37,395 nt of DNA. Origin: a virus (lineage: Duplodnaviria; Caudoviricetes). The position numbers and the translations under genes are program-made. The notes below the pieces were generated by a model. The model made no database searches. It was not told the DNA's origin and was given only the letters and a program-made list of their open reading frames with translations. Positions 7,406 through 37,395 of the stretch are shown one piece after another (position 1 is the stretch's first letter; each line of letters begins with the position of its first letter). The stretch is taken from positions 1 through 37,395 of the IMG/VR virus record IMGVR_UViG_3300008253_000002. One strand, given 5' to 3'.

Positions 7406-8128
7406 ATGCCAGAAGTAAATGGAAAGAAGTTTCCCTATGACAAGCAGGGAATTATAGCCGCTGAACAGGAGCGTGAGAGGGCACAGCCTCAACAACCCCA
7501 AGGTCAGGGTTCTCAACAACCCCAAGGTCAGGGTGAGAGTAACGCTGAGTTTGATAAGTATGTCGATAACGCAATGGAACTCCTGTATTCAGATGAGATT
7601 GCCAGCAAACTTTTAAAGTTAGGTGGTAACAATCAGGACTCTGTTGAAGGCATGGCAGACATGATTAGTATGTCAGTCATCAAGGTTGATGAGAAGAACG
7701 GAGATCAGATACCCGAAGATTTGATATTGCCCTTAACAGAGCAAGTGACTCAGATGGTTGAAGAGTTAATTGAATCGCAGACTAAGAAACCCGTCCCTGA
7801 GCAAGCAGTTATTAAAGCGAGTCAACTTGCAGTTAGGAATCTAATTGAGCATTATGGTGTAAGTGATGAACATATAGCTAATGCACTTCAAGGAATGAAC
7901 CCAGAAGAAGTTAGGTCTGCCACTAAGGATTTAGAGGCTACAATGGGACAGGGTGAACAAAGAGGTCGTGAGCAAAGAGGTCGTGAGCAAAGAGGTCGTG
8001 AGCAAAGAGGTCGTGAGCAAAGAGGTCGTGAGCAAAGACCACAGCAAGGTCAACGCCCGCAACGACCTATGCCACAGCAAGGTCAACGCCCGCAACGACC
8101 TATGCCACAGCAAGGAGGAAGAAGATGA
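7406..8128 (+). CDS. Probable internal virion protein with Q/P/R-rich repeats, 240 aa
   Basis: RBS AGGAGA upstream; helical core with disordered repeat termini; no Cys. Confidence 0.6.
   Translation: MPEVNGKKFPYDKQGIIAAEQERERAQPQQPQGQGSQQPQGQGESNAEFDKYVDNAMELLYSDEIASKLLKLGGNNQDSVEGMADMISMSVIKVDEKNGDQIPEDLILPLTEQVTQMVEELIESQTKKPVPEQAVIKASQLAVRNLIEHYGVSDEHIANALQGMNPEEVRSATKDLEATMGQGEQRGREQRGREQRGREQRGREQRGREQRPQQGQRPQRPMPQQGQRPQRPMPQQGGRR
7955..8115 (+). repeat. 15-bp repeat x5.6 (GARCAAAGAGGTCGT = EQRGR) followed by 33-bp repeat x2.3 (PQQGQRPQRPM)
   Basis: Directly visible at 7955-8038 and 8039-8115. Confidence 0.97.
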
Positions 8129-21375: not shown

Positions 21376-21460
21376 CCCCTAATACTAACCTAAATATAAA
21401 ATCAACCACCCCTACAAACACAAGGATTGGCAAAACAAAAATCGCATATAAATATGTCAT
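21362..21460 (-). CDS. Small hydrophobic peptide, 32 aa (not in ORF track)
   Basis: MTYLYAIFVLPILVFVGVVDFIFRLVLGGDSE*; ATGA overlap with the SNF2 stop, GGAGG RBS, fills the intergenic gap. Confidence 0.6.
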   Translation of the reverse strand: MTYLYAIFVLPILVFVGVVDFIFRLVLGGDSE

Positions 21461-22830
21461 ACTTCCTCCATTAACTTTAACCTCTCTACCTCTTTTGCTA
21501 ACCCAACCAATAATGACTGTTGTACTGATTCTTTCGCCTTCAATGACTCCACTACACGCTCATCGATAGTATTCTTTGCAACAATATAGTTAATGACAGT
21601 AGTCTCAGTTTGTCCTTGTCTGTGTAACCTGCCAACCGCCTGTAAGTAATGCTCGTTTGACCACGGCAAACAATAAAACACCATCTGATTCCCGCCGTGC
21701 TGTAGATTTAACCCATGCCCCATAGACTGAAAATGACCACACAGTAACCTCAACTTCCCATCATTGAAATCTCGTACTGAGTTGGGGGTTTTTATATGTG
21801 TGGCAAACGGGAACCGCGTTTTTATAGCACTCCAATCTGCCTTAAACTCGTAGAACAATAATATAGGTGTCACAGAACTTTCTACTAACTCGCTCAACGC
21901 CTTAAGCTTTTCGACATGGATCTGGACGATCTCCTTGACCTCGGTATATAAAAACCCGTTACACGCTTGGCGTAATTTCCCAGACAGGACAGCAGAGTTC
22001 ACTGCCGCTATAGGGTTATTAGCTATCTCAACTATGAAGTCACGCTCTAACTGCTTGTAAGTTGTATATGCCTTTTCTGGCAACGTGACATTAATGGTGT
22101 TGTGTATCAATGGAGGTAAACTAAGATAGTCCTCTTTAGACATACGAAGAGTAATATCTTTGATCCTCTCCATAATATCATTACCAGCCCCATGCCTTAA
22201 TTCCCAATTCCACTTATTGTAGTCAGTAGGGTAGAAAAACTCATTCTGAAATGTTGTGAATGATTTATGTAACCTCGTACCACCATCAATCAATCTGAAC
22301 TGTGTCCATAGTGATGCTAATGTATTCGCGGCAGGAGTTGCTGACAGACAAAACACCCTGTCTACTTTGTTCCTAATCCCTTTAAGCGTCTTAAATCGTT
22401 TACTAGAGTGATTCTTAACCATACTAGACTCGTCCAGTATCAAAGTATCATATGACCAAGCAATTCCCTGGTCTTTTAATTCTTGAACTAACCAACCCAC
22501 TAAGTCATATGACATTGATATAATTTTAGGATCAGACGCTAACAGCTCTCTTCTTCTCTGTGGATTACCATTAATCGGTATTACTGATATGTCCTTTAGG
22601 TGTTCCCATTCATATGGCTCTTCCGCCCAAACACTCTCAGCAATTCGTGGAGTCCCTAGAATTAGTGCTTTTTTACATTTCCCATCAGCAATTAACTTTT
22701 TTAGGGCGGTCAACATTGTGACTGTTTTTCCAAGCCCAGTGTCATATGAAAGTAGCCCACCTTCTAAGCGACTAATTAGGAAATCAACACCAACTCTTTG
22801 GTACTTGAATAAGTCAGTGTCACTCCGCAT
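21457..22830 (-). CDS. SNF2-family (SF2) phage helicase; start could instead be 22845
   Basis: KYQ Q-motif, DTGLGKT, ILDESS, SATP, GHGLNLQ, QAVGRLHRQGQ. Confidence 0.93.
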   Translation of the reverse strand: MRSDTDLFKYQRVGVDFLISRLEGGLLSYDTGLGKTVTMLTALKKLIADGKCKKALILGTPRIAESVWAEEPYEWEHLKDISVIPINGNPQRRRELLASDPKIISMSYDLVGWLVQELKDQGIAWSYDTLILDESSMVKNHSSKRFKTLKGIRNKVDRVFCLSATPAANTLASLWTQFRLIDGGTRLHKSFTTFQNEFFYPTDYNKWNWELRHGAGNDIMERIKDITLRMSKEDYLSLPPLIHNTINVTLPEKAYTTYKQLERDFIVEIANNPIAAVNSAVLSGKLRQACNGFLYTEVKEIVQIHVEKLKALSELVESSVTPILLFYEFKADWSAIKTRFPFATHIKTPNSVRDFNDGKLRLLCGHFQSMGHGLNLQHGGNQMVFYCLPWSNEHYLQAVGRLHRQGQTETTVINYIVAKNTIDERVVESLKAKESVQQSLLVGLAKEVERLKLMEEV

Positions 22831-23257
22831 TTGTCCGTTCCCCATCAGTAGGTAGATACACCTCTACCACATCACGGTCAACCTCTTCGGCAACCCCTAA
22901 TTCCCAAGCATCCCAATGAACTCTACTATTGTTGGTGCTGAACATCCCATGCAACTCTTCATTCAGTGCCATGATACACCTTGCGATGCAACTGCTTTGG
23001 TTATTAGCCAACTTCACATGAACTGTGTTATCACTGATCGCGGAATCCCAACGTATCTTTTCTCGTATTGCTGATATGCTGTAGCTTTTCCGCTTAGATA
23101 CACGTTTAAGATACTTTGCGTTTCGCTCAAACGCATCAAACACATACATATTATTTGGCAACCACTCAACGAAGTTCTTTACCACCTTGTCATTAATCCC
23201 ATCGAACAACTCAGGACGTGACTTTACAAGATTAACTATCTCTTCAGCCTGTCTCAT
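22820..23257 (-). CDS. Phage hypothetical protein, 145 aa
   Basis: Overlaps both neighbours; YSISAIREKIRWD...KLANN...IAR resembles an uncharacterised phage family. Confidence 0.65.
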   Translation of the reverse strand: MRQAEEIVNLVKSRPELFDGINDKVVKNFVEWLPNNMYVFDAFERNAKYLKRVSKRKSYSISAIREKIRWDSAISDNTVHVKLANNQSSCIARCIMALNEELHGMFSTNNSRVHWDAWELGVAEEVDRDVVEVYLPTDGERTNAE

Positions 23258-23540
23258 TACTCATTACCTCCGCAACTAATGAATCTACACCATCTTTTGA
23301 ATCTATGACCTCTACCCTCAACCCAAACAACCGCAACCTGTTAATCTGGTGCTGTTGCAACGCAGTAAGGGAGTTGCCCTTGCCCAGAGCCTTTAACTCC
23401 ACGGCAATAACAACTCCCCTCGGGAAAATGCACAGTCTATCTGGAACACCTCTAGTAGATGGGGATGACCACTTAAAGGCATCACCCCCCACAGACCTAA
23501 CCTGTTTAACTAGATATTTTTCAATAACAGACTCTCGCAT
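23244..23540 (-). CDS. VRR-NUC domain nuclease
   Basis: MRESVIEKYL, GVPDR, VELKA, LTALQ motifs; usual position next to a SNF2 helicase. Confidence 0.92.
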   Translation of the reverse strand: MRESVIEKYLVKQVRSVGGDAFKWSSPSTRGVPDRLCIFPRGVVIAVELKALGKGNSLTALQQHQINRLRLFGLRVEVIDSKDGVDSLVAEVMSNETG

Positions 23541-23543
23541 AAC

Positions 23544-24236
23544 CTAAAATGGTACACGATCATCTGATGCTACTTTAGGCGGCACTATCTCACCTTCCTT
23601 TGGTATATCTGCTATGGTTTTGTATCCAGTAGCCTTAGCCAGTTCTACCGTATCAACCCAACCCATGATATTTATCTCTGGTGCAGGGACAGACTTGGTT
23701 TTGTTACGAGCCTTCTTACTTGGCATATCCCAAGAAGTTAAAGACACTATAGGCATCTGAAACTTACCAACCTTTCTGGCATTTTGCATATACCCTTTTA
23801 TCAATTTAGATACAGCTACCGTTCCCCCAACCGTGGACGTTGAATACTTATACAACTCCCCTGTCTGAAAGTCCGTGAAGTCAATCTTCAACACGTTCTT
23901 CCACCCATCCCCATCAGAGTAAACACCACTCTTGTCTGGAGAATAGTCTTTTAACTCTGACTTTTTAGGGAAATTATCCGCACCAGAGTCAACATCCTTG
24001 TACAACGCTGTAACCTCTGACGGTACGCTACCATCAACGTAGCAAAGAAACCCTTTTGCCGCACTATTGTGTACGTCTACAACAAATATCTGCTCTGGCA
24101 ATATTGGAGATTGATCCTCACCATATAACCAATCACCTGCCTTGAACTTGGTGTAGTAAAACGCACCACCCTCATCTGCCACACCCTCATCAAATGCCGA
24201 CATTCCTAACTCACTCACTTTCATTAAATCACTCAC
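23544..24236 (-). CDS. Probable single-stranded DNA-binding protein
   Basis: Aromatic beta-rich core (YTKFKAGDWLYG, YSTSTVGG, PIVSL); acidic tail DDRVPF resembling the SSB tip DDDIPF; adjacent to the exonuclease. Confidence 0.65.
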   Translation of the reverse strand: MSDLMKVSELGMSAFDEGVADEGGAFYYTKFKAGDWLYGEDQSPILPEQIFVVDVHNSAAKGFLCYVDGSVPSEVTALYKDVDSGADNFPKKSELKDYSPDKSGVYSDGDGWKNVLKIDFTDFQTGELYKYSTSTVGGTVAVSKLIKGYMQNARKVGKFQMPIVSLTSWDMPSKKARNKTKSVPAPEINIMGWVDTVELAKATGYKTIADIPKEGEIVPPKVASDDRVPF

Positions 24237-25375
24237 TTTGTCACCTCTTTCATCGTTGATATAGTTAATCTCTCTGATTCTTTTCCATCTATATAAAATG
24301 GGGATAAATCAATCCCAATTTCTTCTATCTGTGCCGTGTCTAATTTCTTCCTCCCTGCCACGGTAGTTAACTTAACTTTGAACCCAGTTCCGTCACATGA
24401 ACCAGACACGACACCGCATCCAACTTCGTGCAGGAACATCTTGATTTCTTCCTCTACAAAACCCTTCGTCTTAGTTGCCTTTTTAATCTCCTTCATATAT
24501 ACATCTCTCTCCATGACTAGCTTAGATATATGTTTCATATCTCTCTCGTCTAGGACATTTTCTTTGGGTGGGTCATACTTCAGTACAGACTCACCACATG
24601 AATCTCTCCAAGCACAATAATCACACTCCCCTGTGTATTTGCCCTCGGCTAATAACTTTCTCGGATCATCTAGGTTGCTGAAAATCTTAGCTACCCTGCC
24701 ACGAACTGCGTCAGCAACAGTAGGATCATACCGAATCTCAAACATCGTTATATCCTGATAGTCAGATGCGTTCACATAGATGATCCAACCCCGATCAGGT
24801 CTGTGGTCGGTCTTTTTATGATACAAATCCATTTGAACCTGTACCTGAACAACGTGATCCTCTTTAGGCTCAGATAAATTAGATCGTGGGTCAATTGATT
24901 TAATCTCAATCGCAACCTCATCATCGTCAGGATCATCTGTAGTGCCAGTTTCAGACTCACCAAAATGTTTAGCAGACGTACTGTATGATCTGTTGATAGA
25001 TAACAACCCATCAGAAGTTGCTGACAATTTCCCATCGACTAATGTGACTTGGTTATCTCCCCAATACCAGAAAGCGTAATACCTATATGGTTCTACACGG
25101 TCACGCACTAAACTATCAATCAGGTTAGAAAGCCAATACTCAACATTGTGACCACGCTCCAAAAACCCCCAACGATTCTTGTAACCCACATCCTTTGGGT
25201 GATCTGATTTGTCATACGCCACAGCCCTTAAACATTTATTACTGCTACTTGCACCAACAGTTTTAGAGCGGTCATGAACATCACCAGACTGAGTACGAAA
25301 CTCCGTCTTTTTAGCGTATGGTATATCTATCAAAGACTGTCGGAACGCTGTTAAGTCATCCATTTGAACCACCAT
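24233..25375 (-). CDS. Cas4-like PD-(D/E)XK exonuclease
   Basis: KCLR, ERGH, TSDG, IEIKS, QVQVQM and CDYCAWRDSC give a four-Cys Fe-S pattern around a RecB-like core. Confidence 0.85.
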   Translation of the reverse strand: MVVQMDDLTAFRQSLIDIPYAKKTEFRTQSGDVHDRSKTVGASSSNKCLRAVAYDKSDHPKDVGYKNRWGFLERGHNVEYWLSNLIDSLVRDRVEPYRYYAFWYWGDNQVTLVDGKLSATSDGLLSINRSYSTSAKHFGESETGTTDDPDDDEVAIEIKSIDPRSNLSEPKEDHVVQVQVQMDLYHKKTDHRPDRGWIIYVNASDYQDITMFEIRYDPTVADAVRGRVAKIFSNLDDPRKLLAEGKYTGECDYCAWRDSCGESVLKYDPPKENVLDERDMKHISKLVMERDVYMKEIKKATKTKGFVEEEIKMFLHEVGCGVVSGSCDGTGFKVKLTTVAGRKKLDTAQIEEIGIDLSPFYIDGKESERLTISTMKEVTK

Positions 25376-25852: not shown

Positions 25853-26107
25853 TTACCCCCAAATCTCAACCACTACGGTTTCTGGAGATGCTGATATAAC
25901 TGCGTGGGCTAACCGATCCAACGCAGGATCACTAACATCACCATGAACCCTTTTCACCACCGCTTCACCATCATTCGTGAATATGCAATCTACAACCCAC
26001 ACCAAATCACCATCCACAAGCCGCCAGTCTTTTTTAAGTTCCAGTTGCGCACCTGTTAGTTGGTATGGGTTGTTTCTAGGTCTTTTAACACGCTTCAACT
26101 GCTTCAT
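25853..26107 (-). CDS. Hypothetical protein, 84 aa
   Basis: ATGA overlap with the upstream gene. Confidence 0.55.
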   Translation of the reverse strand: MKQLKRVKRPRNNPYQLTGAQLELKKDWRLVDGDLVWVVDCIFTNDGEAVVKRVHGDVSDPALDRLAHAVISASPETVVVEIWG

Positions 26108-26511
26108 GACACGCCCCCATCCATAACAACGTAATCATCACAAGTAGGGCATTTGTCGCTGACAGACGTAACCCTTACCGCACAAGGTCGGCAATAAGCA
26201 TTCTTCATAACATTCTCACTATAATGGACATCTTCTTTGGCTCTGGCGATTGCCAGTTCATACTCATGCAGACCGATCACGATCCATGTGTTGATTGCTG
26301 ATTGGACACTTGGGCGTTGGGTGAAGTCAATACCACTAATTTGCCGGTACTCATCCCTTGCTATACGCATCACCTGTTGTGTGAACAGGTCTTCTGCACT
26401 ATCACTCCATTTATATTTAGCGTTGAACCGCTCGTCTAACTGTTCTTTGACAGCCGCATCAAGATGCAGACTGATGGTTTTTATATCTCTTTTAACTCGC
26501 TTCATTCTCAT
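26104..26511 (-). CDS. Hypothetical protein with possible ribbon-helix-helix N-terminus and C-terminal Zn ribbon
   Basis: AAGGAG RBS; KTISLHLDAAVKEQLD; CRPC...CPTC; first gene of the leftward operon. Confidence 0.55.
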   Translation of the reverse strand: MRMKRVKRDIKTISLHLDAAVKEQLDERFNAKYKWSDSAEDLFTQQVMRIARDEYRQISGIDFTQRPSVQSAINTWIVIGLHEYELAIARAKEDVHYSENVMKNAYCRPCAVRVTSVSDKCPTCDDYVVMDGGVS

Positions 26512-26558
26512 TATCTCCTTTTCTCAAAATATGTACACTCTTTGAAGAGTGCAAATTA

Positions 26559-26588
26559 ATAATAGCACAAGCTAGTCGTGGATAGCAA
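26559..26588 (-). promoter_or_regulatory. Sigma70-like leftward promoter containing the shared 18-bp motif
   Basis: Minus strand TTGCTA-N18-TATTAT with TG extension; contains ACTAGCTTGTGCTATTAT. Confidence 0.65.
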
Positions 26589-26659
26589 TATTTAATTTAG
26601 TTGCACCTGATTGCCGATAGTTGATAGAATCAAGCCTCCTACAACCAATAAGAGGACAC

Positions 26660-26989
26660 ATGGGCGATGACATACTTAAGAAAATAACAGATGATTGGAA
26701 CTCCCAAATAGCAACATCACCATCAACATTAGTTAAAAAGATAAAAAGTGTCGGTGGAGAGAGTATAGAAGGTGATTGGTATCTGGTGGACAGGTGTATC
26801 GTTAACGTGAAAATAGCGAACTTACTCTACTCAATCCCTGATCTAGCGTGGGCGATACTCAGCGAGGAAGGTGATCTACAGTTAGTTGACCTACCAACAG
26901 CTATCGCCCCTGACATTGTAGTTAAGGCGGTGGATTTACTGAAAACCCACACCACACATGAAAATAATATAAATCTTGAATTACATTAG
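26660..26989 (+). CDS. Hypothetical protein, about 109 aa
   Basis: AGAGGA RBS before ATG 26660 (ORF track starts at TTG 26621). Confidence 0.55.
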   Translation: MGDDILKKITDDWNSQIATSPSTLVKKIKSVGGESIEGDWYLVDRCIVNVKIANLLYSIPDLAWAILSEEGDLQLVDLPTAIAPDIVVKAVDLLKTHTTHENNINLELH

Positions 26990-27004
26990 CGAGGTGTAAT
27001 AAAT

Positions 27005-27325
27005 ATGTCAAAAAGACAAAGACCACTTATGCAGACCACCTACCTCGGAGATGCCGAAGAGGACAGGATTGAAGACCTTATTAAAGAGCGAGTTAAAGAG
27101 GATAGAAGACAAAGGAATGAACCCGAAATTAAGATTGATTGGACATACTCTACTATAAAGCAGTTCTGTCAACGGTATCCTGTCTTCACGGAAGGTGGTG
27201 TCCGATTCATGCTCCACGAAGAATCCAAACATCATCTGCGGGAGCGTGGTTGTGTTGTCCGTGTCGGTGGAAGAATATTGGTGCATGAGAAAAAGTTCTT
27301 AAAGGCACATGGATTAGAGTATTGA
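27005..27325 (+). CDS. Xis/MerR-like winged-helix DNA-binding protein
   Basis: TIKQFCQRYPVFTEGGVRFML...VVRVGGRILVHEKKF; GAGGTG RBS. Confidence 0.7.
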   Translation: MSKRQRPLMQTTYLGDAEEDRIEDLIKERVKEDRRQRNEPEIKIDWTYSTIKQFCQRYPVFTEGGVRFMLHEESKHHLRERGCVVRVGGRILVHEKKFLKAHGLEY

Positions 27326-27350
27326 TAACATCACTAGCTAGTGCTATAAT
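27322..27350 (+). promoter_or_regulatory. Near-consensus sigma70 promoter with a palindromic operator-like spacer
   Basis: TTGATA-N17-TATAAT with TGn extension; perfect palindrome CACTAGCTAGTG at 27332-27343. Confidence 0.8.
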
Positions 27351-27384
27351 ATTAAAACTATCAAAGCACAGGGAAAGTTAGAGC

Positions 27385-27651
27385 ATGACCAAATTTAAGG
27401 AATTTTATCTGGGGTTATCTACGCATGAACGCAGAGAGTTAGCCAAACGCATGGACACCTCAGAACAATACTTGTACCAACTCAGTACAGGTTTTAGGCG
27501 TTTTGGTTACAAGACCCTAGAGCGTGTTGAGTCTGCTACATGGGGTTATATCACGCCCAATGACTTGATAGTCACCACACCACCACCAAGAGTCAGAACA
27601 CCCTTATTAAGAAAGAAAGTGTCTGAGTTGATGCGCTCTGGCAACCCTTGA
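27385..27651 (+). CDS. Cro/YdaS-like HTH regulator
   Basis: RRELAKRMDTSEQYLYQLSTGFRR...VESATWGYITPNDL. Confidence 0.82.
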   Translation: MTKFKEFYLGLSTHERRELAKRMDTSEQYLYQLSTGFRRFGYKTLERVESATWGYITPNDLIVTTPPPRVRTPLLRKKVSELMRSGNP

Positions 27652-27669
27652 CTTACTTAATGAAGTCGC

Positions 27670-27701
27670 ACCCCGATCCTGTGTATCGGGGTTTCTTTTT
27701 T
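27670..27701 (+). terminator. Intrinsic terminator between the Cro-like gene and the replicase
   Basis: ACCCCGAT-cctgtgt-ATCGGGGT followed by TTCTTTTTT. Confidence 0.8.
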
Positions 27702-27723
27702 ATGGGGATAAAAGGATAAAAAC

Positions 27724-30700
27724 ATGGATAAGATCACCGCACAATTTGTAGCAGAGTCAATATCACCAGACCTAGCTAAAGTCGAAAAAGACGGTTCATG
27801 GGTTACGCAATGTGTACACCCTAACCACCCTGACAATGACCCCTCTCTGGTTATCACCGATAAGAAAGGTGGTGGCATACTGGTGTTCTGCCGTGGAGGT
27901 TGTAAGCAGAGCGAAGTCGTTGCAGAACTCCAGAACAGGGAACTGTGGGCAACCAAGTCAGACCTGAGAACAAGTGTTAAGGGCAAGGGTAGCCGTAGCA
28001 CCGTGACTTCTAAGTACCGATACTATTCTGAGGATGGGGAATTACTGTTTGAAAAGCAACGTAAAGAATCATCCGCAGGGAAAAAGACCTTTGTCATCGG
28101 TACATATAATGAAACGGGTGCTTTTATCTACGGCAAACCCAAAGGACACCCACCCCTGTACAACCTGAGTGCAGTTATATCTTCACAGGAAGTGTACATC
28201 GTGGAGGGTGAGAAAGATGTTGATACCTTAACTGACCTTGGGATAACTGCCACCACTAACTTTGACGGTGCAGGGAGGTGGTCTATTGACCACTACAACC
28301 CACCGCTCAAGGGCAAAGATATTATCTTAGTACCTGACAATGACACCGCAGGGCGTAAGCACATGAACGTAGTGGGTATGTCCGTTATGCTTGTCGCTAA
28401 TAGTGTTAAGGTGCTGATGTTAGATGGACTCCCTGACAAGGGGGATGTCTCCGATTGGCTGAATGGTGGGCGTAGCATCGTGGAGTTTCTAGCCCTCTCG
28501 TCCGATGCTCCACCATTCTCCCCAGATGACGCTGTGCCGTGGCGTGACAGGCTATTGATGAGTGACAAGGGGGTTGTTGAGAAGATCGCTAAGAATGTCC
28601 ACATAGCCTTTAGACACGCACCACAGTTTAAGAATAAGTTGCGGTTCAATCTGTTCACCCACACCGTAGAGATCAGCGACAGTGGTGATGATCTGCCGTG
28701 GGCAAGTTCTGGTGAGTGGACTGACCATGACACCATGATGGCAAATGTAGAGTTGAATGACATGGGCATCTTGGTGGGTAAGAACCTGACCGATGATGGG
28801 ATGCTGTCAGTTGCAAGATTGTCTGAGAACTCCTATGACCCCTTGAAAGATTACTTAGAGGGTGTTGAGTGGGATGGTGTGCCTAGAGTTGATGATTGGC
28901 TACTTACCTATGCTAACTGTACTGACCGCAAGGACTACCTTAACATCATTGGTGCTAAGTGGTTGATTGGTGCTGTAGCCAGAGGTCTTAATAACAACCC
29001 GAATGGGGTTAAAGTAGACACTATGCTCATCTTGGAATCTGCACAGGGGCGTAAGAAAAGTACCCTTGTAGAGAGTTTATGCCCCGATAAGACATGGTTC
29101 TGCGATGGGATTGAGGGTGATCTTGGGAACAAAGATGCTGTGATTCTGTTGCAAGGTGCGTTCATCGTGGAAATTCCTGAGTTGGGAGCGTTCTCCAAGA
29201 CCGCAATCAACCAACAAAAGTCTTTTATTAGTCGTAAGGTTGATAAGGTGAGGTTGCCGTTTGAGCGGCACAGTTCGTCATTGCCCAGACGATGTGTGTT
29301 TATTGGTACGCATAACCCCAATGGTGAAGAGTATCTGCGTGACCCATCAGGGAATCGTAGGTTTCTTCCTTGTGAGGTTGGTGCTACCGTGGATATTGAG
29401 GGTTTGGAACGTGACAGAAACCAACTCTGGGGTGAGGCGGTACACCGCTATAAATCAGGTGAATCTTGGTGGGTGGACGATGAGAGTATGGCAGAAATTG
29501 TCAGGTCAGAGCAGAGTAGTCGGTTCTTAGACCATGACATTATGGACGTTGTGGATATGTATATTACACAGCAACCAATCATTCTAGATGCCACGGATAA
29601 AAGGAATATTGACATTGAATGGCACGACCGTGATGAGTCTTTGACAGTCTTTTTCCCCAAACTATTCTGGTTGGAAGTGTATGCGGAAGAGTTCGCTACA
29701 GGGTGTCAAAAACAGCTTAAAGATGGTATCAATCGGGGCATGGCACACCGTGGGTGGGTGAAGGGAACTTACTGGTGTGGTGGGTTGAAATCTACCTGTA
29801 AAGGGTTCAAAAAGACCACAAAAGAGGGTGGCGATGAGGATTTTGGTAAGGTTTTGGGAAAGGTGCTGAAACCATTACTAAAAAGTAATGGTTCTAGCGT
29901 GGATGAAAAAAACCTTACCAAAAACACAAAACCTTACCAAAACCTTACCAAAAAACCCGAAAACCCCGAAAACTCGGAGTTTATCGGAAAAACGCTGAAA
30001 CCATTACTAAATAGTAATGAATCTGATTCTGGTAAGGTAAGGAAAACGGTAAGGTCGGAAAAAACGCTGGAAGCCACGGAATCCGTGGCAATAATAAAAC
30101 CTTACTTACCTTACTATAAAAAGAGTAATATTATTAAATATAATAATAATGTAAATAGTAATGACATAAATTATTCTCACAGGATGGTTATGAAAACGGG
30201 TTATTTTGGTAAGGTTGGTAAGGTCGAGAAAAACGGTAATTATTTTTCTGTTGTCCGAGGGGATTCTGAGAAACCTTACCAACCTTACCGAAAAAACAGC
30301 ATAACTTTTGTCGAGACCGAATTTTTGTTATCCACGTTCGATTCGTTGGTTGGAATTGACTTTGAAACCACAGGTTTATCGCCACGAATAGGTCATGTAA
30401 GATCGGCTCAATTATGGTGTGGTGATGTGGGTATTTTTGTCGATTTTGGTGCTGACCTTGGTTATGAGAATCGGGATAAGGAGGGAGTGATCCGTGGGAA
30501 CTTAGCGTTCCGAGATTTCTGCCAAGCGATCAGTAAACATACACATGGGTTCGTGGCACATAATGCTCAGTTTGAACACAAGTGGATTCGCCACGCTTGT
30601 CCAGAGGTTGGGGATAGGATTGTTATCCACGATACGATGTTAGCTTATGGTTCAATGTATGGTGGGGCGATTTCGTTAGCTGACGCTTGTAAACGGTTTC

Positions 30701-32091
30701 TTAAAGTGGATTTGCCCAAGACCCAACAGAAAAGTAATTGGAACGCCTTGGAGTTAACTGACACACAAATATCTTATGCTATGGCAGATTCCGAGATTGT
30801 TCTGGATTTGTGGAAGGTGTTGGGTAAGCAGTTAAATGACCGTGGGATGGTCAAAGGGTATAAGTTGTTGTTGAGTAGTGTCGCTCCTATTGACCGTATG
30901 ATGAGTAACGGTATGCCTTTTGATATTGTGGGTCATGAGCGTGTTCTTAGACGCTTTGAAGAGGGTGTTGAGTTAGCATCTAGGAGTCTTAATCGCATCT
31001 GTCCTGAGATTGCGAATTGGGATTCACCGACACAGGTTGTTAAGTGGGTTAATGCCAAGTTATCGGAGTGTCCTTTAGAGGATAGACGCTCTGCTTTGGC
31101 AGGGTGGGAAAAGACAGGTGGTGGTGCTTTAACATTGGGTAGGGCTGTTTTAACTGAGCGGTTGTCTGGTGGGCATATTAAGGATGGGTATTTGCGTAAG
31201 GTGTTGTCTAGGTATCTCGCTCGTCAACGAAGGAAGAAAATTAAGAGTACATACGGCAGTTCGTTACGAAAATTGGTTAGTGATGGTCGTATTTATGGTC
31301 ATCTGAGGATTATGGGTGCGGTGACAGGACGAATGTCATCATCTGAGCCTAATCTACAGAATATGCCGTCAGGGGCGTTTAGAGGGTTATTTAAAGCATC
31401 CGAGGATTGTAAGATTTTAGTCTGCGATTACTCACAAATTGAGGTTCGTGTGGGTGGTATGTTGGCAGATTGTGATGTACTTGGTGATATTTTCTCTAAG
31501 GGGATTGATGTGCATCGAGGTACTGCGGCTAAAATGTTCCGTGTTTCAGTTGATGAGGTCACTAAGGCACAACGTAGAGCCGCAAAAAGTTTAACTTTTG
31601 GTATGCAATACGGCATGGGTGCTAGAAGTATTGCTAAGTTGATGGATTGTACTGTTGAAGAGGCTAATGGGTTCATCAGGTTGTGGAAGTCAACCTACCC
31701 TAAAGTATCGGTCTGGCGGGATGCTCAAGCTAAGATAGGGTCACAAGGTGGGTTATTAACTACAGCAGGGGGGAGAACTATTTATGTGAACAGGGGTGTT
31801 TCACCATCATGTTGTTACAATTATCCTGTACAGGGGTCAGCTAGTGATGTGATGTATGCCGCAATCATTGAGTTGGACAGGTTGCTAAGTTGGGAGGATA
31901 TTGACTGCCGACCTATTGCGGTGGTTCATGATGAGATTGTTATGGAGTCAGCAGATCGTGATGTTGACAGGAGTAAAGAGTTACTGGAGATGGCAATGTT
32001 AAATGGGTTTAAGCAGATATTCCCTGATGGTGATATTACAGGGTTGTTGGACGGTGGTTGTTTAGTAGGTGATTCGTGGGGGGTTAAGTGA
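27724..32091 (+). CDS. Fused replicase: Zn-finger/TOPRIM primase, VapE-type P-loop helicase, 3'-5' exonuclease and family A DNA polymerase, 1455 aa
   Basis: Zn: CVHPNH...FCRGGC. TOPRIM: IVEGEKD, PDND, GDVSDW. VapE: WDGVPR, AQGRKKST, IVEIPEL, FIGTHN, DPSGNRRF. Exo: DFETTG, HNAQFE, YAMAD. PolA: TGRMSSSEPNLQN, DYSQIE, RAAKSLTFGMQYG, NYPVQG, VHDE. Confidence 0.92.
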   Translation: MDKITAQFVAESISPDLAKVEKDGSWVTQCVHPNHPDNDPSLVITDKKGGGILVFCRGGCKQSEVVAELQNRELWATKSDLRTSVKGKGSRSTVTSKYRYYSEDGELLFEKQRKESSAGKKTFVIGTYNETGAFIYGKPKGHPPLYNLSAVISSQEVYIVEGEKDVDTLTDLGITATTNFDGAGRWSIDHYNPPLKGKDIILVPDNDTAGRKHMNVVGMSVMLVANSVKVLMLDGLPDKGDVSDWLNGGRSIVEFLALSSDAPPFSPDDAVPWRDRLLMSDKGVVEKIAKNVHIAFRHAPQFKNKLRFNLFTHTVEISDSGDDLPWASSGEWTDHDTMMANVELNDMGILVGKNLTDDGMLSVARLSENSYDPLKDYLEGVEWDGVPRVDDWLLTYANCTDRKDYLNIIGAKWLIGAVARGLNNNPNGVKVDTMLILESAQGRKKSTLVESLCPDKTWFCDGIEGDLGNKDAVILLQGAFIVEIPELGAFSKTAINQQKSFISRKVDKVRLPFERHSSSLPRRCVFIGTHNPNGEEYLRDPSGNRRFLPCEVGATVDIEGLERDRNQLWGEAVHRYKSGESWWVDDESMAEIVRSEQSSRFLDHDIMDVVDMYITQQPIILDATDKRNIDIEWHDRDESLTVFFPKLFWLEVYAEEFATGCQKQLKDGINRGMAHRGWVKGTYWCGGLKSTCKGFKKTTKEGGDEDFGKVLGKVLKPLLKSNGSSVDEKNLTKNTKPYQNLTKKPENPENSEFIGKTLKPLLNSNESDSGKVRKTVRSEKTLEATESVAIIKPYLPYYKKSNIIKYNNNVNSNDINYSHRMVMKTGYFGKVGKVEKNGNYFSVVRGDSEKPYQPYRKNSITFVETEFLLSTFDSLVGIDFETTGLSPRIGHVRSAQLWCGDVGIFVDFGADLGYENRDKEGVIRGNLAFRDFCQAISKHTHGFVAHNAQFEHKWIRHACPEVGDRIVIHDTMLAYGSMYGGAISLADACKRFLKVDLPKTQQKSNWNALELTDTQISYAMADSEIVLDLWKVLGKQLNDRGMVKGYKLLLSSVAPIDRMMSNGMPFDIVGHERVLRRFEEGVELASRSLNRICPEIANWDSPTQVVKWVNAKLSECPLEDRRSALAGWEKTGGGALTLGRAVLTERLSGGHIKDGYLRKVLSRYLARQRRKKIKSTYGSSLRKLVSDGRIYGHLRIMGAVTGRMSSSEPNLQNMPSGAFRGLFKASEDCKILVCDYSQIEVRVGGMLADCDVLGDIFSKGIDVHRGTAAKMFRVSVDEVTKAQRRAAKSLTFGMQYGMGARSIAKLMDCTVEEANGFIRLWKSTYPKVSVWRDAQAKIGSQGGLLTTAGGRTIYVNRGVSPSCCYNYPVQGSASDVMYAAIIELDRLLSWEDIDCRPIAVVHDEIVMESADRDVDRSKELLEMAMLNGFKQIFPDGDITGLLDGGCLVGDSWGVK
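29841..30294. other. Putative replication origin (CCTTACC/GGTAAGG iterons, three hairpins, AT-rich core) inside the replicase ORF
   Basis: 11 exact heptamers in both orientations; hairpins at 29870-29893, 30002-30019 and 30073-30089; AT-rich tract ~30112-30175. Confidence 0.78.
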
Positions 32092-32264
32092 TTAAGTGGT
32101 TAAATAAATGGGTCAGACCAACGGAAGAACCACGAAGGTCAGAGAATCAATGTCATTGTGGTGCGAACATGATTGTGTATTATTCCAAGGGGATTAGGTC
32201 GTGCTACCATTGTGGTAGAAACTATGAAATCTCTAATGGTGTGGAAATTAGGCATCAGCGATGA
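32088..32264 (+). CDS. Small Zn-ribbon protein, 58 aa (not in ORF track)
   Basis: GTGA overlap with the replicase stop; MIKWLNKWVRPTEEPRRSENQCHCGANMIVYYSKGIRSCYHCGRNYEISNGVEIRHQR*. Confidence 0.65.
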   Translation: MIKWLNKWVRPTEEPRRSENQCHCGANMIVYYSKGIRSCYHCGRNYEISNGVEIRHQR

Positions 32265-32417
32265 GGTGATATTGGTTTGAGTTAGGTTTAGCATCCACTT
32301 TGCGCCCACCTTCTCAAACTATGTTCCTCGTTCCTCCACTCCCAAAATGGGTTTTTTCCCATTAAAATCATGGGTCTTCCCTGACCTGTGAGTTCTCCCT
32401 GATTCGTCCGATCTCTT

Positions 32418-32849
32418 TTATTTACGCTCCGAGTTCAGAAACCAATGTACAAATTCATCGGGGTTTTTTATTGTCCGATCATTTGCATCATTTCGTAAAT
32501 TTAAATATTCTTTTGCACTCATGGAAACCTGATATTCGTTAAGTGGTTGCCATGCTATATCTTTAATAGTTTCTAAATCTACCTTAAAACTATTTCCTAT
32601 TTCATCGACAATGGTGTGTTTAACTAAATCGTTTTTTGTGTATAGATATTTTATTGGGTTATAAGAATATCCCCTTAGTGGGTTTTCTAAATCCCACGTT
32701 TGGCTAATGCATTGTGATACATAGTCACTTGATACGCCTGTCTCGATCAGTTCATCTACGGTTATCGTTGATGGGTTAAAATCCTTTAGGTGTTCTACTA
32801 TTGTTACACGACACTTTTCGTCTTCAATTAATCGGTGATTCGTTGTCAT
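32418..32849 (-). CDS. Hypothetical protein, 143 aa
   Basis: AAGGGG RBS, AT-rich coding sequence; no motif recognised. Confidence 0.65.
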   Translation of the reverse strand: MTTNHRLIEDEKCRVTIVEHLKDFNPSTITVDELIETGVSSDYVSQCISQTWDLENPLRGYSYNPIKYLYTKNDLVKHTIVDEIGNSFKVDLETIKDIAWQPLNEYQVSMSAKEYLNLRNDANDRTIKNPDEFVHWFLNSERK

Positions 32850-32911
32850 TTTTTACCCCTTGGTGGTGTTGTTAAAAACTCATTGTTAAATATACTTGTG
32901 TAAATAGATTT

Positions 32912-32952
32912 AAAAATAAGCTGAACGACTAGCAAGTGACACTAGCCGTTCA
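32912..32952 (-). terminator. Intrinsic terminator downstream of the peptidase gene
   Basis: Minus strand UGAACGGCUAG-N9-CUAGUCGUUCA (11 bp, one G-U pair) then GCUUAUUUUU; the G-U pair fixes the strand. Confidence 0.72.
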
Positions 32953-32970
32953 TCATCATTTATTGTTTGT

Positions 32971-33975
32971 TCATAGTTTAAAATCCTTGTTGTTTTGATC
33001 GTCTAAATATTCGTGTATATCGGCTAAACTGAAACCCATGTGTTCTAAAAAATCGTTCGTTGCTCTTGGTCTATTTCTAATGAATATTTCTAACTTGCTT
33101 GCGGTGTGTTGGTAAACTGGTGCTTTAGTTTTGACCTTGATTTTCTTGTGCGTCTTTTTTGGTTTGAGTGGTGGATACGTTACACTTGAGCGATACCCAT
33201 TGGAGTTATACCCATAGTTGGTGGCATATCCCCAATCAATTTCTTCACATGGTTCTTTAAAGACTTGTAAATTATCCCAATCAAATTCTAAAAGCTTATC
33301 TATTAGTTCAAGCATAAAATCTATATCTTGATATTCGTTAGTGGTGTGTTGATTGAAATATCCGACAGATAAATTCACACATTCATTCACTTTAAAACGA
33401 AAACTGGCACTATCAGTTACACTACCCACGGCTGATTGCATTCCAAGGCTTTCATATTGCAAAGCATATTGTGTACTGGCAGTTCGCACCCCTAATTGGG
33501 TTGTGACGATGTCGTTATACCCTTTTCTGTCAAACGATATAGCTTGTGTGATATTGTCCAAACATAGTGTGTTAGCACAGTGTTCTGAGCCGTTACACCC
33601 AATTTCTTCCTCCCTCATGAGGATATACACCCCATTGGGTGGATTGGACGATTTGAGTAGTTGTAGTAAAATGAAGATTCCGGTCGTATCATCCGCTCCG
33701 AGACAATTTGCTGTTGATGATACGACCGAGTACTGATCGTCTATCAGCAATTTTTGTTGTCCACCGATTTGATGTACTGTATCAGTATGGGCTAAAAATA
33801 GTTTATCGGGATTGTCTCCAATCTCACACATAAAATTTCCGAAACTATCCTCGAAACCACCATGCATTTCGATAGTTGGTAATATGAATTTCTCACACCA
33901 AGCATCTTCCTCGACACTCATTGCCGGTCTCATAGTTTTTAACATTTCTAAATATTCGTCTTTTAAGTTTTGCAT
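32971..33975 (-). CDS. M28/M42-like zinc-dependent peptidase/amidohydrolase
   Basis: AHTDTV, LGADD, EEIG, FDRKG and NLSVGYFNQHT metal-ligand motifs. Confidence 0.88.
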   Translation of the reverse strand: MQNLKDEYLEMLKTMRPAMSVEEDAWCEKFILPTIEMHGGFEDSFGNFMCEIGDNPDKLFLAHTDTVHQIGGQQKLLIDDQYSVVSSTANCLGADDTTGIFILLQLLKSSNPPNGVYILMREEEIGCNGSEHCANTLCLDNITQAISFDRKGYNDIVTTQLGVRTASTQYALQYESLGMQSAVGSVTDSASFRFKVNECVNLSVGYFNQHTTNEYQDIDFMLELIDKLLEFDWDNLQVFKEPCEEIDWGYATNYGYNSNGYRSSVTYPPLKPKKTHKKIKVKTKAPVYQHTASKLEIFIRNRPRATNDFLEHMGFSLADIHEYLDDQNNKDFKL

Positions 33976-35321
33976 TATCTTCTCCCTTTTCTTATCCAGT
34001 TTGTTGTTTGTTCATGCTCTACAGAAATACACTTTACTGAACAGTAGTAATACCCATTATCGGAAATAATACTTGTACTTCTGCGGTGGAGCGGAACAAT
34101 TACTTTTCTTGTATTTCGATCTGATCTCGCATCGTGTTCGCAATTCATACACGTTCGCAAACCATGCTTATTGTGAGTGCTTTGGTCGAGCCATTGCAAA
34201 ACATATAATTTATTTCGATACTTCCCTAATTCATCATTTCTAAAAATGCCATGTCCTTTAACGGTCGAATACTCATCACTCTCTTTTAAACATTTTTTAG
34301 AACAGAACATCAATGTTGAATGGTAATAATGATGTAAGCCGTTAGACTTGTATGACCTCTTATCACACGTTGGACAAGCAGGACGATTATCTAATAATGC
34401 TGTACTAGCCATGTACTGATAATGCCCACCATCGGCTTGAAAATAACCCTTTGGGTCTACTCTAAACTTTTTAGTATATTCACTATATGATAGTGAGCTA
34501 GTACCATCGAGATATGGGATTATTAGGTGGTGCTGTTTATCTGTTGAGTTATGATCTTCCAATGGTAACGGGTTTAGATATACACCCTGAAGAAACCGAG
34601 GCGATTGTTTAAATCCTAAGTCTTTCATGTGTTGCACTAGAATATCTCTTTCGGGGCATCTACCATAAACTTTGTGGCTCATTAGCTGTTGATCGGGTCT
34701 AACAAGAACTCTCGCAAGTACAGTATCTTCACCATTACAATCACCATAGATATAAGCGAGCTGTATACCACTCTCGCCACCGTAACATCCAGCAGGGTGT
34801 AACACATCTGTGTCGAAATATGCCCCCCATTCATACGAGTGCCGACCGCCCATACATGACTGTGCGGGGTAATCAGTAGAACATTCAGACAGTGTTCCAC
34901 TTTGCTCATACATCTCTACAATGTCAGGAGAGCTTGTTGCTATCTGCACATTGATACTCTGCTGATTTGTATATGCTCTATGATCGGCTTTATACAGTGA
35001 AGATAGCCGATTAATTTCTCCCTCTTCTAATGTAGTGACTCTCTTTAGATACTTTCCTATCTTGGTAGTTGTATACCTTGGTTCACCCTCCACTACACGA
35101 TTAAAAATAGCCACCGTATCAAATTTTGATGATACTTCTTGTTTAGGGAAATGCGGTATATCTACTCCAAGAGGTAGCCGCATTCGATTGATATGCTCGC
35201 TTAGTTGGTATTCGCCTGAAGCGAATTTCGTTACTTCATTCAGCCGAGCGGTTTTAAATTCACCTCCATGTTCTTCCGCCATCACTAACGCTTCAGTAAT
35301 TTGATTCACTGTAATACTCAT
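33975..35321 (-). CDS. SCM-motif protein with Cys-rich C-terminal Zn-binding region, about 448 aa, function unknown
   Basis: Start moved to ATG 35321 (ATGA coupling); QSCM, HPAGCY, LAY, ARVL, KVYG, PYLD; CPTC, CSKKC, CMNC, CSVKC. Confidence 0.7.
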   Translation of the reverse strand: MSITVNQITEALVMAEEHGGEFKTARLNEVTKFASGEYQLSEHINRMRLPLGVDIPHFPKQEVSSKFDTVAIFNRVVEGEPRYTTTKIGKYLKRVTTLEEGEINRLSSLYKADHRAYTNQQSINVQIATSSPDIVEMYEQSGTLSECSTDYPAQSCMGGRHSYEWGAYFDTDVLHPAGCYGGESGIQLAYIYGDCNGEDTVLARVLVRPDQQLMSHKVYGRCPERDILVQHMKDLGFKQSPRFLQGVYLNPLPLEDHNSTDKQHHLIIPYLDGTSSLSYSEYTKKFRVDPKGYFQADGGHYQYMASTALLDNRPACPTCDKRSYKSNGLHHYYHSTLMFCSKKCLKESDEYSTVKGHGIFRNDELGKYRNKLYVLQWLDQSTHNKHGLRTCMNCEHDARSDRNTRKVIVPLHRRSTSIISDNGYYYCSVKCISVEHEQTTNWIRKGRR

Positions 35322-35452
35322 ACTGTTGCACCCCATAAAATTAATAGTAAGGTTACACACCCAACTAGCCCAATTGCGGCAGTTATTGCCGTAATTAAGT
35401 CTCTCTGTTCTTCAATGTACTTTTGATTCGTGCAGTTTTTGTAGTCGATCAT
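35318..35452 (-). CDS. Small membrane protein, 44 aa (not in ORF track)
   Basis: AAGGAG RBS; MIDYKNCTNQKYIEEQRDLITAITAAIGLVGCVTLLLILWGATV*; its stop overlaps the next ATG. Confidence 0.68.
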   Translation of the reverse strand: MIDYKNCTNQKYIEEQRDLITAITAAIGLVGCVTLLLILWGATV

Positions 35453-35521
35453 AACGCCTTACTCCTTTGTGTTGGTGGTAGTTGTCCGGGATTGTTCCCG
35501 GTTGTCATCTCTGACAATTCC

Positions 35522-35550
35522 AGTTTACCCTTTATATATAAGAGTGCCAA
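35522..35550 (-). promoter_or_regulatory. Sigma70-like promoter for the leftward, probably early, module
   Basis: Minus strand TTGGCA-N17-TAAACT about 70 bp upstream of the 44-aa ORF. Confidence 0.65.
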
Positions 35551-35704
35551 GCATTGATTGAGATTGATAGTCACGTTGTCATGCTGTCATTGTCACACCC
35601 AATCATTGGATCAGGCTGATCAGTATGAAAAGTATTGCGTTCCATTGTCAGAACATCATCGACACATTAAAATGTCATCAAATCAGCGTGTAAGCGTGTC
35701 ATTT

Positions 35705-35713
35705 TGATATAAT
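35705..35713 (+). promoter_or_regulatory. Extended -10 promoter upstream of the small terminase gene
   Basis: TGATATAAT with no recognisable -35. Confidence 0.5.
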
Positions 35714-35847
35714 GAGAGCGTGAAATCGTGATTTTGGCGTTTTATTAAAAGGGTGGGGAGGGTAAAGAGGGGCGTGACCCCCTGACGCTAACACGCCCGC
35801 CCACGCTCACATATATATACTTTTAACACGGTTAATTGGAGGATTTT

Positions 35848-36369
35848 ATGTCTAAAGTAGATAAGTACATAACTAAGATCGAGACAGGTGCGAACTCTTG
35901 TGAACGGTATACAGATGAGAATGGGGTTGATGTACACCACCACGTTCACGATCCTTATGTAGCCACACACTCACCACCCACGCTTACCCCACCCAGAGCG
36001 CCTAAGTTTGGTGAGGTTGGGTGGGGCAAAGGTAAGCGTAAAACTGGTGGGTCAGTGCATGGTACTCGTACTCGTATAACCATATCCAGGGATGTTAAGG
36101 AGATAGTAGAGAAAGAGGGTCTAAACCCAGCAGAAGCACTTGTCAGAGTAGCCGAAATGGCAGAGGATAAGGGTGATTTAGGAACAGCCCGTAGCTGTTA
36201 TTCCGAGTTGTTATCTTATATAAGTACGAAGAAAGACATCTCCAAGATAGATACCAGTGCATTAATAGTTCACTGGAGATCCCCAGATGATGCGCCTAAA
36301 CAGATAGGTGGTGAAGTGATAGAGGTTATCGAAGACAACAGCGATGATTCCAAGAAACAGGGGGGGTAG
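35848..36369 (+). CDS. terS: Probable terminase small subunit
   Basis: GGAGG RBS before ATG 35848; directly upstream of TerL; basic KGKRKTGGS segment then helical NPAEAL...ELLSY. Confidence 0.68.
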   Translation: MSKVDKYITKIETGANSCERYTDENGVDVHHHVHDPYVATHSPPTLTPPRAPKFGEVGWGKGKRKTGGSVHGTRTRITISRDVKEIVEKEGLNPAEALVRVAEMAEDKGDLGTARSCYSELLSYISTKKDISKIDTSALIVHWRSPDDAPKQIGGEVIEVIEDNSDDSKKQGG

Positions 36370-36434
36370 GTCTGATCCCCACCCATTAACACTGGCAACC
36401 AACACACACTAACTTCAACACACTATATATTTTT

Positions 36435-36456
36435 TGGTATAATAGCATAAGCTAGT
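36435..36456 (+). promoter_or_regulatory. Extended -10 promoter for terL overlapped by an inverted copy of the 18-bp motif
   Basis: TGGTATAAT at 36435-36443; ATAATAGCATAAGCTAGT at 36439-36456. Confidence 0.6.
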
Positions 36457-36480
36457 TATAAACCTTCAGGGAGTATTATA

Positions 36481-37395
36481 GTGCCAGAAGTAGAGATACC
36501 CTATTATCCAAGACCACTCCAACGACATCTCCATGACAATATAAAGAGGTGGTCTGTAGTCGTGGCACACAGGCGTTTTGGGAAGACCTTCTGGGCGATT
36601 AATCACTTACTCCGTGACGCACTGACAATGCGTAAGGACAATGTTAGGTTGGCATATATTGCTCCCACTTATCGTCAGGCTAAAACGATCGCATGGGACA
36701 TCTTAAAGAATATGTCCAGACCAGTTCCTCGGATACTCATTAATGAGACTGAGTTACGGATTGATTATCCCAATGGCTCACGACTTCGGTTATATGGTGC
36801 AGGGGATGATCCAGACGCACTTCGCGGGCAGTATTTCGATGGGGTGGTGCTTGACGAGTATGCCCAGATGCCATCAAGTCTCTTTGGCGAGATTATTAGA
36901 CCAAGTTTATCAGATCGTAAGGGGTATGCCATATGGATAGGGACTCCACAAGGCAATGACCTATTTTACGACTTATATCAATCCGCGAAGGTTAGGGAAG
37001 AAGCCAAGGATTCGACATGGATGACAGCACTCTTTAGGGCTTCTGAGACAGGGGTCATTGACCAAGATGAGTTAGAAGACGCTAAGACCATAATGACCCC
37101 AGCCGAGTATGCTCAAGAGTACGAGTGCAGTTTTACTGCCGCGATTGAGGGAAGTTATTATGGGTCGTTCATGGACAGGGCAGAGGAAGAGGGTCGGCTT
37201 GAAGCTGTGCCTTACGAGACTATGTTACCTGTTCATACGGCATTTGACCTCGGAATAAGTGATAGTACCGCTATCATCTTCTATCAGGTTTTGAGGAGGG
37301 AGATCAGGATAATTGACTATTATGAACAGGACGGAGAGGGTCTGGCACATTATATAGCTTATCTTTCGCGTAAACCGTACACCTACGGGACTCAC
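36481..37395 (+). CDS. terL: Terminase large subunit, partial (runs off the window; absent from ORF track)
   Basis: GTG start after AGGGAG; YYPRPLQ, VAHRRFGKT (Walker A), APTYRQAK, GVVLDEYAQM (Walker B), IGTP, AFDLG nuclease motif. Confidence 0.96.
   Translation, partial: MPEVEIPYYPRPLQRHLHDNIKRWSVVVAHRRFGKTFWAINHLLRDALTMRKDNVRLAYIAPTYRQAKTIAWDILKNMSRPVPRILINETELRIDYPNGSRLRLYGAGDDPDALRGQYFDGVVLDEYAQMPSSLFGEIIRPSLSDRKGYAIWIGTPQGNDLFYDLYQSAKVREEAKDSTWMTALFRASETGVIDQDELEDAKTIMTPAEYAQEYECSFTAAIEGSYYGSFMDRAEEEGRLEAVPYETMLPVHTAFDLGISDSTAIIFYQVLRREIRIIDYYEQDGEGLAHYIAYLSRKPYTYGTH

Follow-up and report, generated by a model that had tools for sequence, protein, structure and literature searches.

A probable SaPI-type replication origin translated in frame as the helicase–polymerase linker of a phage replicase

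According to the accessible part of PMC9371898, SaPI Reps bind iterons of 5–6 bp through a C-terminal winged helix, and SaPI origins carry 6–12 iterons directly downstream of rep, with at least two of them on each side of an A/T region and pointing in opposite directions. For PriRep5, the binding of iterons via the winged helix was shown by cryo-EM, as described in the accessible text of a 2026 preprint (bioRxiv 10.64898/2026.10.17.759575). Primase–helicase–PolA fusions and intragenic origins are both already published, separately from each other, and phage helicase–PolA and further PolA fusions are listed in the accessible part of PMC10201439. A literature search based on result listings, with few subscription journals among its sources, did not bring up any article in which an origin is translated as a helicase–PolA linker. 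Here, a repeat array is described which is read in frame as the linker between the helicase and the polymerase of a phage replicase and which probably constitutes a replication origin of the SaPI type.

The window, i.e., the whole stretch of 37,395 nucleotides that was analysed, is a linear virus record, 62% complete. It carries a large terminase gene and encodes a 3904-aa polyvalent protein, and so it does not fit the definition of a SaPI/PICI satellite as an element without virion genes. The stretch was present in marine and sediment metagenome runs, which consist of contigs with flat depth, with no RNA run among those listed. The polyvalent protein (8805–20519) contains methyltransferase-like, Strawberry-notch-type helicase and LPD38 domains. 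Other features of the window comprised a divergent module at 21457–25375 (SNF2 helicase, VRR-NUC, a 230-aa protein and a Cas4/RecE-like nuclease), with the same order in the related loci L036 and L037, coding tandem repeats at 4967–5183 ((PDPDIDI) x10 in a 1628-aa ORF) and 7953–8115 ((GREQR)n and (PQQGQRPQRPM)n in a 240-aa ORF), and a non-coding segment at 35360–35836, ahead of the terminase region, with several TGTCA/TGACA words.

The replicase gene and its repeat array

The repeat array was located entirely within the replicase ORF, in frame between the helicase and the exonuclease (Table 1). The VEGEKD and PDND motifs in the N-terminus of the replicase presumably mark a primase of the TOPRIM type; for the relative P0122, Toprim matches in Pfam were weak and under the curated cut-off. 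No family in Pfam or PHROG was found for the 88-aa ORF preceding the replicase gene. None of the best 5000 annotated phage records covered 80% of the replicase protein, and when the window helicase alone was used as a query against viral contigs, no matches were obtained. Fused homologs were about 40% identical to the replicase.

Table 1. Features of the replicase gene and of the array within it (positions in the window)
Feature	Position	Strand	Basis or remark
88-aa ORF immediately 5' of the replicase; possible small regulator	27385..27651	+	kept in L035–L037, 34–37% identity
Replicase ORF, 1455 aa: primase, VapE helicase, C-terminal domain, linker, 3'-5' exonuclease, PolA	27724..32091	+	Pfam, PHROG; full-length fused homologs P0002–P0006
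N-terminal Cys/His-containing region and TOPRIM-type primase	27724..28500	+	PHROG primase matches, aa 84–272
VapE (PF05272) SF3-type ATPase, aa 378–598	28855..29517	+	Pfam E 4.5e-65
Helicase C-terminal domain, aa 606–697; predicted winged helix, likely iteron reader	29539..29814	+	AlphaFold; Rep1 alignment
Linker, ~165 codons, K/N-rich, protein not conserved	29839..30335	+	homolog alignment, codon-position counts
Upstream repeat group	29845..30054		GGTAAGG 29845; CCTTACC 29913, 29932, 29943; GGTAAGG 30031, 30036, 30048
Palindrome, core CATTACT-N4-AGTAATG (~29873–29890)	29865..29898		copy 2 at ~29995–30019 (core ~30002–30019)
Left CCTTAC pair, spacing 9 bp, directed into the A/T core	30100..30114	+	
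A/T-rich core, 89%, likely unwinding element	30112..30175		homologous spot is stop and restart in split relatives
Right pair GGTAAGG-TT-GGTAAGG (its lower-strand CCTTAC words face the core); also arm 1 of the 17-bp inverted repeat	30208..30224	+	GGTAAGG 30208, 30217
Outer CCTTACC pair; arm 2 of the 17-bp inverted repeat	30273..30289	+	CCTTACC 30274, 30283
3'-5' exonuclease domain, aa 875–1037	30346..30834	+	Pfam PF01612
Family A polymerase domain, aa 1086–1426	30979..32001	+	Pfam PF00476 E 1.6e-62

An exact-word search returned six copies of GGTAAGG and five of CCTTACC at the positions listed in Table 1, as well as CCTTACTTACCTTAC at 30100–30114, and the two arms of the 17-bp inverted repeat were exact reverse complements of each other; every position that the first-pass annotation had given for these elements was right. 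Together with two CCTTAC copies, the eleven exact heptamers formed an array extending over 29845–30289, and 11 of the 17 heptamer copies of the whole window were concentrated inside 450 bp. The core tract, previously annotated as AT-rich, was with its 89% A+T the top 64-mer of the window (runner-up 77%). It is flanked by the CCTTAC pair at 30100/30109 and the opposed pair at 30208/30217, and the array has in this respect the layout of SaPI/PICI origins, where short opposed iterons of 5–7 bp, at least two per side, flank an A/T region. A short tandem with a period of 11 was also detected at 29909–29953.

The density of the array was confronted with chance controls. In 1000 base shuffles, the maximum was 4 copies of any 7-mer vs. 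12 observed, and 5000 random synonymous recodings of the same peptide reached at most 7 heptamers vs. 11 observed. The sole denser 7-mer cluster in the window was the one-strand tandem coding for (PDPDIDI)n at 4967–5183. The heptamer was translated in differing frames, as NLT or KPY and as GKV or TVR, in line with what had been noticed earlier. The ORF frame contained no stop across the array and the other five frames contained 5–22; an open ORF frame survived in 0 of 20,000 base shuffles.

Just past the A/T core, an AGGA word is located 5 nt 5' of an in-frame ATG at 30190 (30181–30192). Translation may begin internally at this ATG and give a free PolA like that of the split forms described below; it is only a lead, and Met was absent from this position in the fused relatives P0003, P0004 and L195.

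The AlphaFold model of replicase residues 270–705, built from 60 sequences, had a mean pLDDT of 92.8 (a first, alignment-free prediction had a mean pLDDT of 33, which was not taken as a sign of disorder). In this model, the C-terminal domain (aa 606–697) showed a helix-strand-helix-helix-hairpin arrangement, and by its features the domain was DUF3874-like (0.94). The first match in a structure search was 7PDS, i.e., SaPI1 Rep1 (E 6.7e-29, TM 0.74), a helicase that loads itself and has its origin behind its own gene. The alignment of the model with 7PDS reached a Z score of 32.6 with 406 residues aligned (model residues 1–433) and extended through the helicase C-terminal domain, the next entry having a Z score of 13.8. 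By the predicted model, an SF3-type helicase with a C-terminal winged helix is encoded directly upstream of the array, as in SaPI/PICI elements, and the kinship to a SaPI-type initiator-helicase put forward in the first-pass annotation gains structural support from this match.

Arrays and linkers in related loci

Among the matches listed, 160 VapE loci were scored. Of these, 25 were set aside because a usable hit was lacking or the flanks were short, and 5 had PolA behind, leaving 130 unfused loci. An array was called when at least 7 copies of one hexamer, on both strands, occurred in a fixed 500-bp segment past the ATPase domain, with a segment of the same size within the gene being used as the control. 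Arrays were detected in 69 of the 130 listed unfused loci vs. 1 of 130 controls, and in 55/112 vs. 1/112 after dereplication; 61 of the 130 listed loci were below the threshold. In the listed unfused loci, the first copy was located at a median of 4 nt past the VapE stop, only 39 of 659 hexamer copies lay inside the CDS, and none of the arrays was wholly coding. The VapE stops were found at a median of 304 nt past the ATPase domain and the first iteron of the window 322 nt past the domain, so the array of the window sits where a VapE gene normally ends. The earlier suggestion that it occupies the usual 3' end of a helicase gene agrees with these unfused arrays beginning at the stop. A non-coding origin downstream of the rep ORF, as in SaPI elements, is matched by the unfused VapE relatives and not by the window.

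The words of the arrays were lineage-specific (38 different hexamers in the listed unfused loci), and because they vary by lineage, reader and site could be studied as co-varying pairs. Many of the words in the unfused loci L115–L274 had AC near one end (GGAACA, GTAACA, GGTGAC). The 17-nt repeat was found in 34 viral loci, mostly as isolated matches; at least 7 hexamers were present nearby in 6 of these loci, and a VapE gene was located just upstream in 2 of the 34. Large non-coding arrays of GGTAAGG/CCTTACC were observed immediately behind a VapE gene (L016:4704–5070) and behind an unrelated 687-aa gene (L015:4942–5205), and additional arrays were noticed in L003, L012 and L018.

DNA of family members was obtained for at least eight loci (L035–L038, L195, L278, L279 and L282). 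The fused locus L282 lies on a contig of 45 kb that was assigned to a Methylophaga MAG by binning, which gives a host hint for L282 only. Arrays with other words were detected in the linkers: GGTGAGG in L035–L037, GGGTGAGG in L038, AGGTTGAGCCA in L278 and L282 and GGTGACAC in L279. With words picked by eye for each locus, the order of orientations around the core was as in the window in L035–L038 and L195, and the inner sites faced the A/T core in these loci. The array of L195 depends on a degenerate word picked by eye, and the fixed array test gave 4 copies only for this locus, no better than its control. L278 and L282 had a weak A/T core (0.70–0.75), with the richest 40-mer outside the inner pairs. 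The check named in the first-pass annotation, whether homologs keep iteron arrays as the linker diverges, turned out in favour of this pattern, with arrays kept in other words and linkers that could not be aligned as protein among the fused homologs.

Contigs from other studies were also available for the replicase gene. One contig covering 28800–31200 differed by 72 substitutions and zero indels, the X2 linker contained no indels, and in the more distant X18 contig, ~90% alike, the indels within the linker added up to +9 and −9. Iteron bases were changed in 2 of 112 cases in the pairs L278/L282 and L037/L036, vs. 181 of 736 for other linker bases (p 1.6e-10); the pair L037/L035 was excluded from the pool as too close to inform. 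In the same two pairs, second codon positions differed at a rate of 0.255 in the linker vs. 0.052 in the domains, and third positions were changed at 1/39 in iterons vs. 908/2508 in the domains. Between X18 and the window, 1 of 38 listed linker substitutions fell in the 87 iteron bases and 37 in the 379 others (p 0.004, or 0.019 if the single unlisted change falls in an iteron), and the listed changes by codon position were 11/10/13 in the linker and 5/1/34 in the helicase domain. Palindrome copy 1 of X18 had three loop bases changed with the core arms intact, and copy 2 had one loop and one arm change. The homologous right pair encodes GKVGKV in the window and GVRKVR in L035. These counts support the view that selection holds the DNA words, not the linker amino acids, and the earlier claim of a constraint on DNA rather than protein appears justified by the nearly unchanged iterons amid drifting linker codons.

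In three assemblies (L035–L037), the helicase ORF ends with TAA inside the A/T core and a 613-aa PolA restarts 2 nt past the helicase stop in another frame (junctions L035:3352–3359, L036:8293–8300 and L037:8299–8306). Both halves of the array remain coding in these loci, the right half adding ~50 aa to the N-terminus of the split PolA. Stand-alone proteins matching the split forms were P0122, P0127, P0270 and P0271. Programmed frameshifting was considered for the split relatives and rejected, there being no slippery site at the junctions and a PolA-frame stop three codons before the ATG. In the PolA tree and in the helicase tree, the split forms were nested among the fused ones, and a topology with all fused forms together was rejected (p-AU 0.00045, for a group set by the trait after earlier trees had been seen). 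A single fission would be the simplest reading of these trees, with several independent fusions as a possible alternative. As L035–L037 are split at the A/T core and nested among fused forms, the fusion seems to be dispensable in that branch. The first-pass proposal that stops had been kept out of the origin to allow the fusion of PolA stands in part: the open frame is maintained, as seen from the X18 indels of +9 and −9 and from the shuffles, but it is not obligatory, since L035–L037 carry a stop in the core.

Proposed function and competing explanations

In the proposed mechanism, replicase hexamers would bind the CCTTAC(C) iterons on either side of the A/T core via the winged-helix domain coded just upstream, would melt the core and then load themselves, and forks would be started with the replicase's own primase and the tethered PolA. 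Binding, melting and initiation are proposed by analogy with SaPI Rep; the array itself, its position and conservation pattern, the predicted fold match and the split were observed. As for the history, an ancestral VapE gene may have lost its stop at the start of the origin, with reading then continuing across the origin as far as a PolA gene; selection would afterwards have kept the iteron bases and the open frame, not the amino acids, and in one descendant branch a frame-changing break in the A/T core would have led to two proteins again. A more speculative extension, which we consider doubtful, makes the origin the hinge of both fusion and fission: reading through the origin would have built a one-chain replisome, and the break in the melting core would have undone the fusion with both origin halves still translated. 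Origin-bound replicase would also keep its own polymerase half from being transcribed; the initiator would in this way limit itself and act in cis, and each hexamer would carry six tethered polymerases.

The nucleotide skew is weak support for an origin at the array. Cumulative GC skew around 30100 had been named earlier as a check; the raw cumulative minimum was found at ~26.5 kb, at the gene-strand switch, and not at the array. In a leading/lagging model of four-fold sites, which is confounded with gene class, the best switch was at 29.0 kb, with 28.5–30.5 kb close. Within the replicase gene, G:C was 71:61 before the array and 61:26 after it (p 0.017), such a within-gene contrast being significant in only 2 of 6 relatives. 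The scans for sigma-70 promoters and terminators gave numbers close to those expected by chance (4 against 1.8 for the former, 2 against 0.9 for the latter).

Conservation at the level of DNA suits any protein binding site, the two extra palindromes resemble dimer sites, and the raw skew minimum lies at ~26.5 kb; the repeats could accordingly be sites of the replicase or of a small regulator, acting as an intragenic operator or roadblock which limits polymerase expression, with initiation elsewhere. Such an explanation is improbable in view of the unfused relatives, where the array lies past the stop and so cannot repress its own gene, and of the A/T core between opposed pairs and the Rep1 fold, both of which suit an origin; the roles of operator and origin are moreover not mutually exclusive. 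The inverted repeats might instead act in mRNA as a structure for pausing, processing or recoding between helicase and polymerase, since the array stretch folds at −155 kcal/mol (z −12.5), but any opposed repeat array gives such folding. An Rfam search of 26000–37395 gave no match, 1 of 100 predicted pairs was changed on both sides in the two-sequence alignment of L278 and L282, which has little power, the arrays of unfused relatives are mostly non-coding, and the split genes combine the lack of a slippery site with the PolA-frame stop three codons ahead of the ATG, all of which makes a role in mRNA highly improbable.

The K/N-rich linker, the period-11 tandem at 29909–29953 and the other coding tandem repeats of the window would fit repeats that have no role as DNA and arose as a by-product, either of the low complexity of the linker protein or of duplications in this region. 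This explanation is largely refuted and scarcely plausible, because the copies occur on both strands and in several frames, because 11 copies were never reached in 5000 synonymous recodings and because third positions in iterons remained almost unchanged (1/39) vs. the domains (908/2508). The split of three relatives at the same spot could also hint at an assembly or sequencing artefact behind the fusion. Contigs of two other studies cross the linker unbroken and with the frame length kept, and fused proteins occur in several distant lineages; at the DNA level, an artefact is refuted, and the chance left to it is practically nil.

With the array read as a SaPI-type origin, a complete replicon in ~4.4 kb is predicted, in which one gene provides the primase, a self-loading helicase, a polymerase with proofreading and the origin itself. 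The predicted fold ties the VapE/VirE helicases, which are poorly characterised, to SaPI1 Rep1. A repeat array at the VapE stop is common (69/130 listed loci), which offers a simple rule for calling candidate phage origins, and the natural fused and split versions offer a clean test of the benefit from tethering the polymerase to the helicase.

Relation to described systems

The locus resembles SaPI1 pri-rep-ori (Rep1, 7PDS), as presented in the accessible part of PMC9371898, in that the predicted helicase, its C-terminal domain included, can be superposed on Rep1 (Z 32.6) and in that short iterons, opposed around an A/T core, follow directly behind the helicase C-terminal domain, with the primase upstream. 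Unlike the array of the window, the SaPI origin is placed there downstream of the rep frame, and the replicon is described as consisting of primase, Rep and origin only. The array of the window is coding sequence followed by a fused PolA; it comprises 13 copies over ~450 bp and is carried by a tailed phage.

Phage lambda, whose ori lies in gene O, also has iterons and an A/T region within the gene of its own initiator, according to the accessible part of PMC5043065. In lambda, as the same part describes, O dimers act on four 19-bp repeats and the host helicase is loaded, whereas the repeats of the window are 6–7 bp long and the protein itself is helicase, primase and polymerase. With such short repeats and a VapE helicase fusion, the locus is not of the lambdoid type, defined by 19-bp iterons and a non-helicase initiator.

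Pas55 of the Actinoplanes phage phiAsp2 combines a DnaG-type primase, an SF3 helicase and PolA in one chain of 1415 aa, as reported in the accessible part of PMC4889955. The replicase likewise unites a primase of the TOPRIM type, an SF3 helicase and PolA in a single polypeptide, and the likeness is one of architecture only: Pas55 had no VapE match, and its significant similarity to P0001 was limited to PolA (24%), without significant alignment along the primase and the helicase. A scan of pas55 revealed no comparable array: two-strand 7-mers reached at most 5 copies, and the A+T content of 40-mers did not exceed 47%.

The helicase of the apicoplast primase–helicase–PolA polyprotein belongs to another superfamily. 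This polyprotein likewise has a TOPRIM primase, a helicase and PolA in one frame, and for it and for the phage helicase–PolA fusions an origin in the linker is not mentioned in the accessible part of PMC10201439. Helicase–PolA fusions with other helicases (PF13481, D5-type, PF13148) were also noticed among the proteins collected here (P0008, P0010–P0012, P0030, P0040 and P0084), and several of them have low-complexity linkers which may hide origins. Three points in particular are added here to the fusions and intragenic origins already described: a likely VapE reader of the Rep1 type, a control across the family and a fission located in the melting core.
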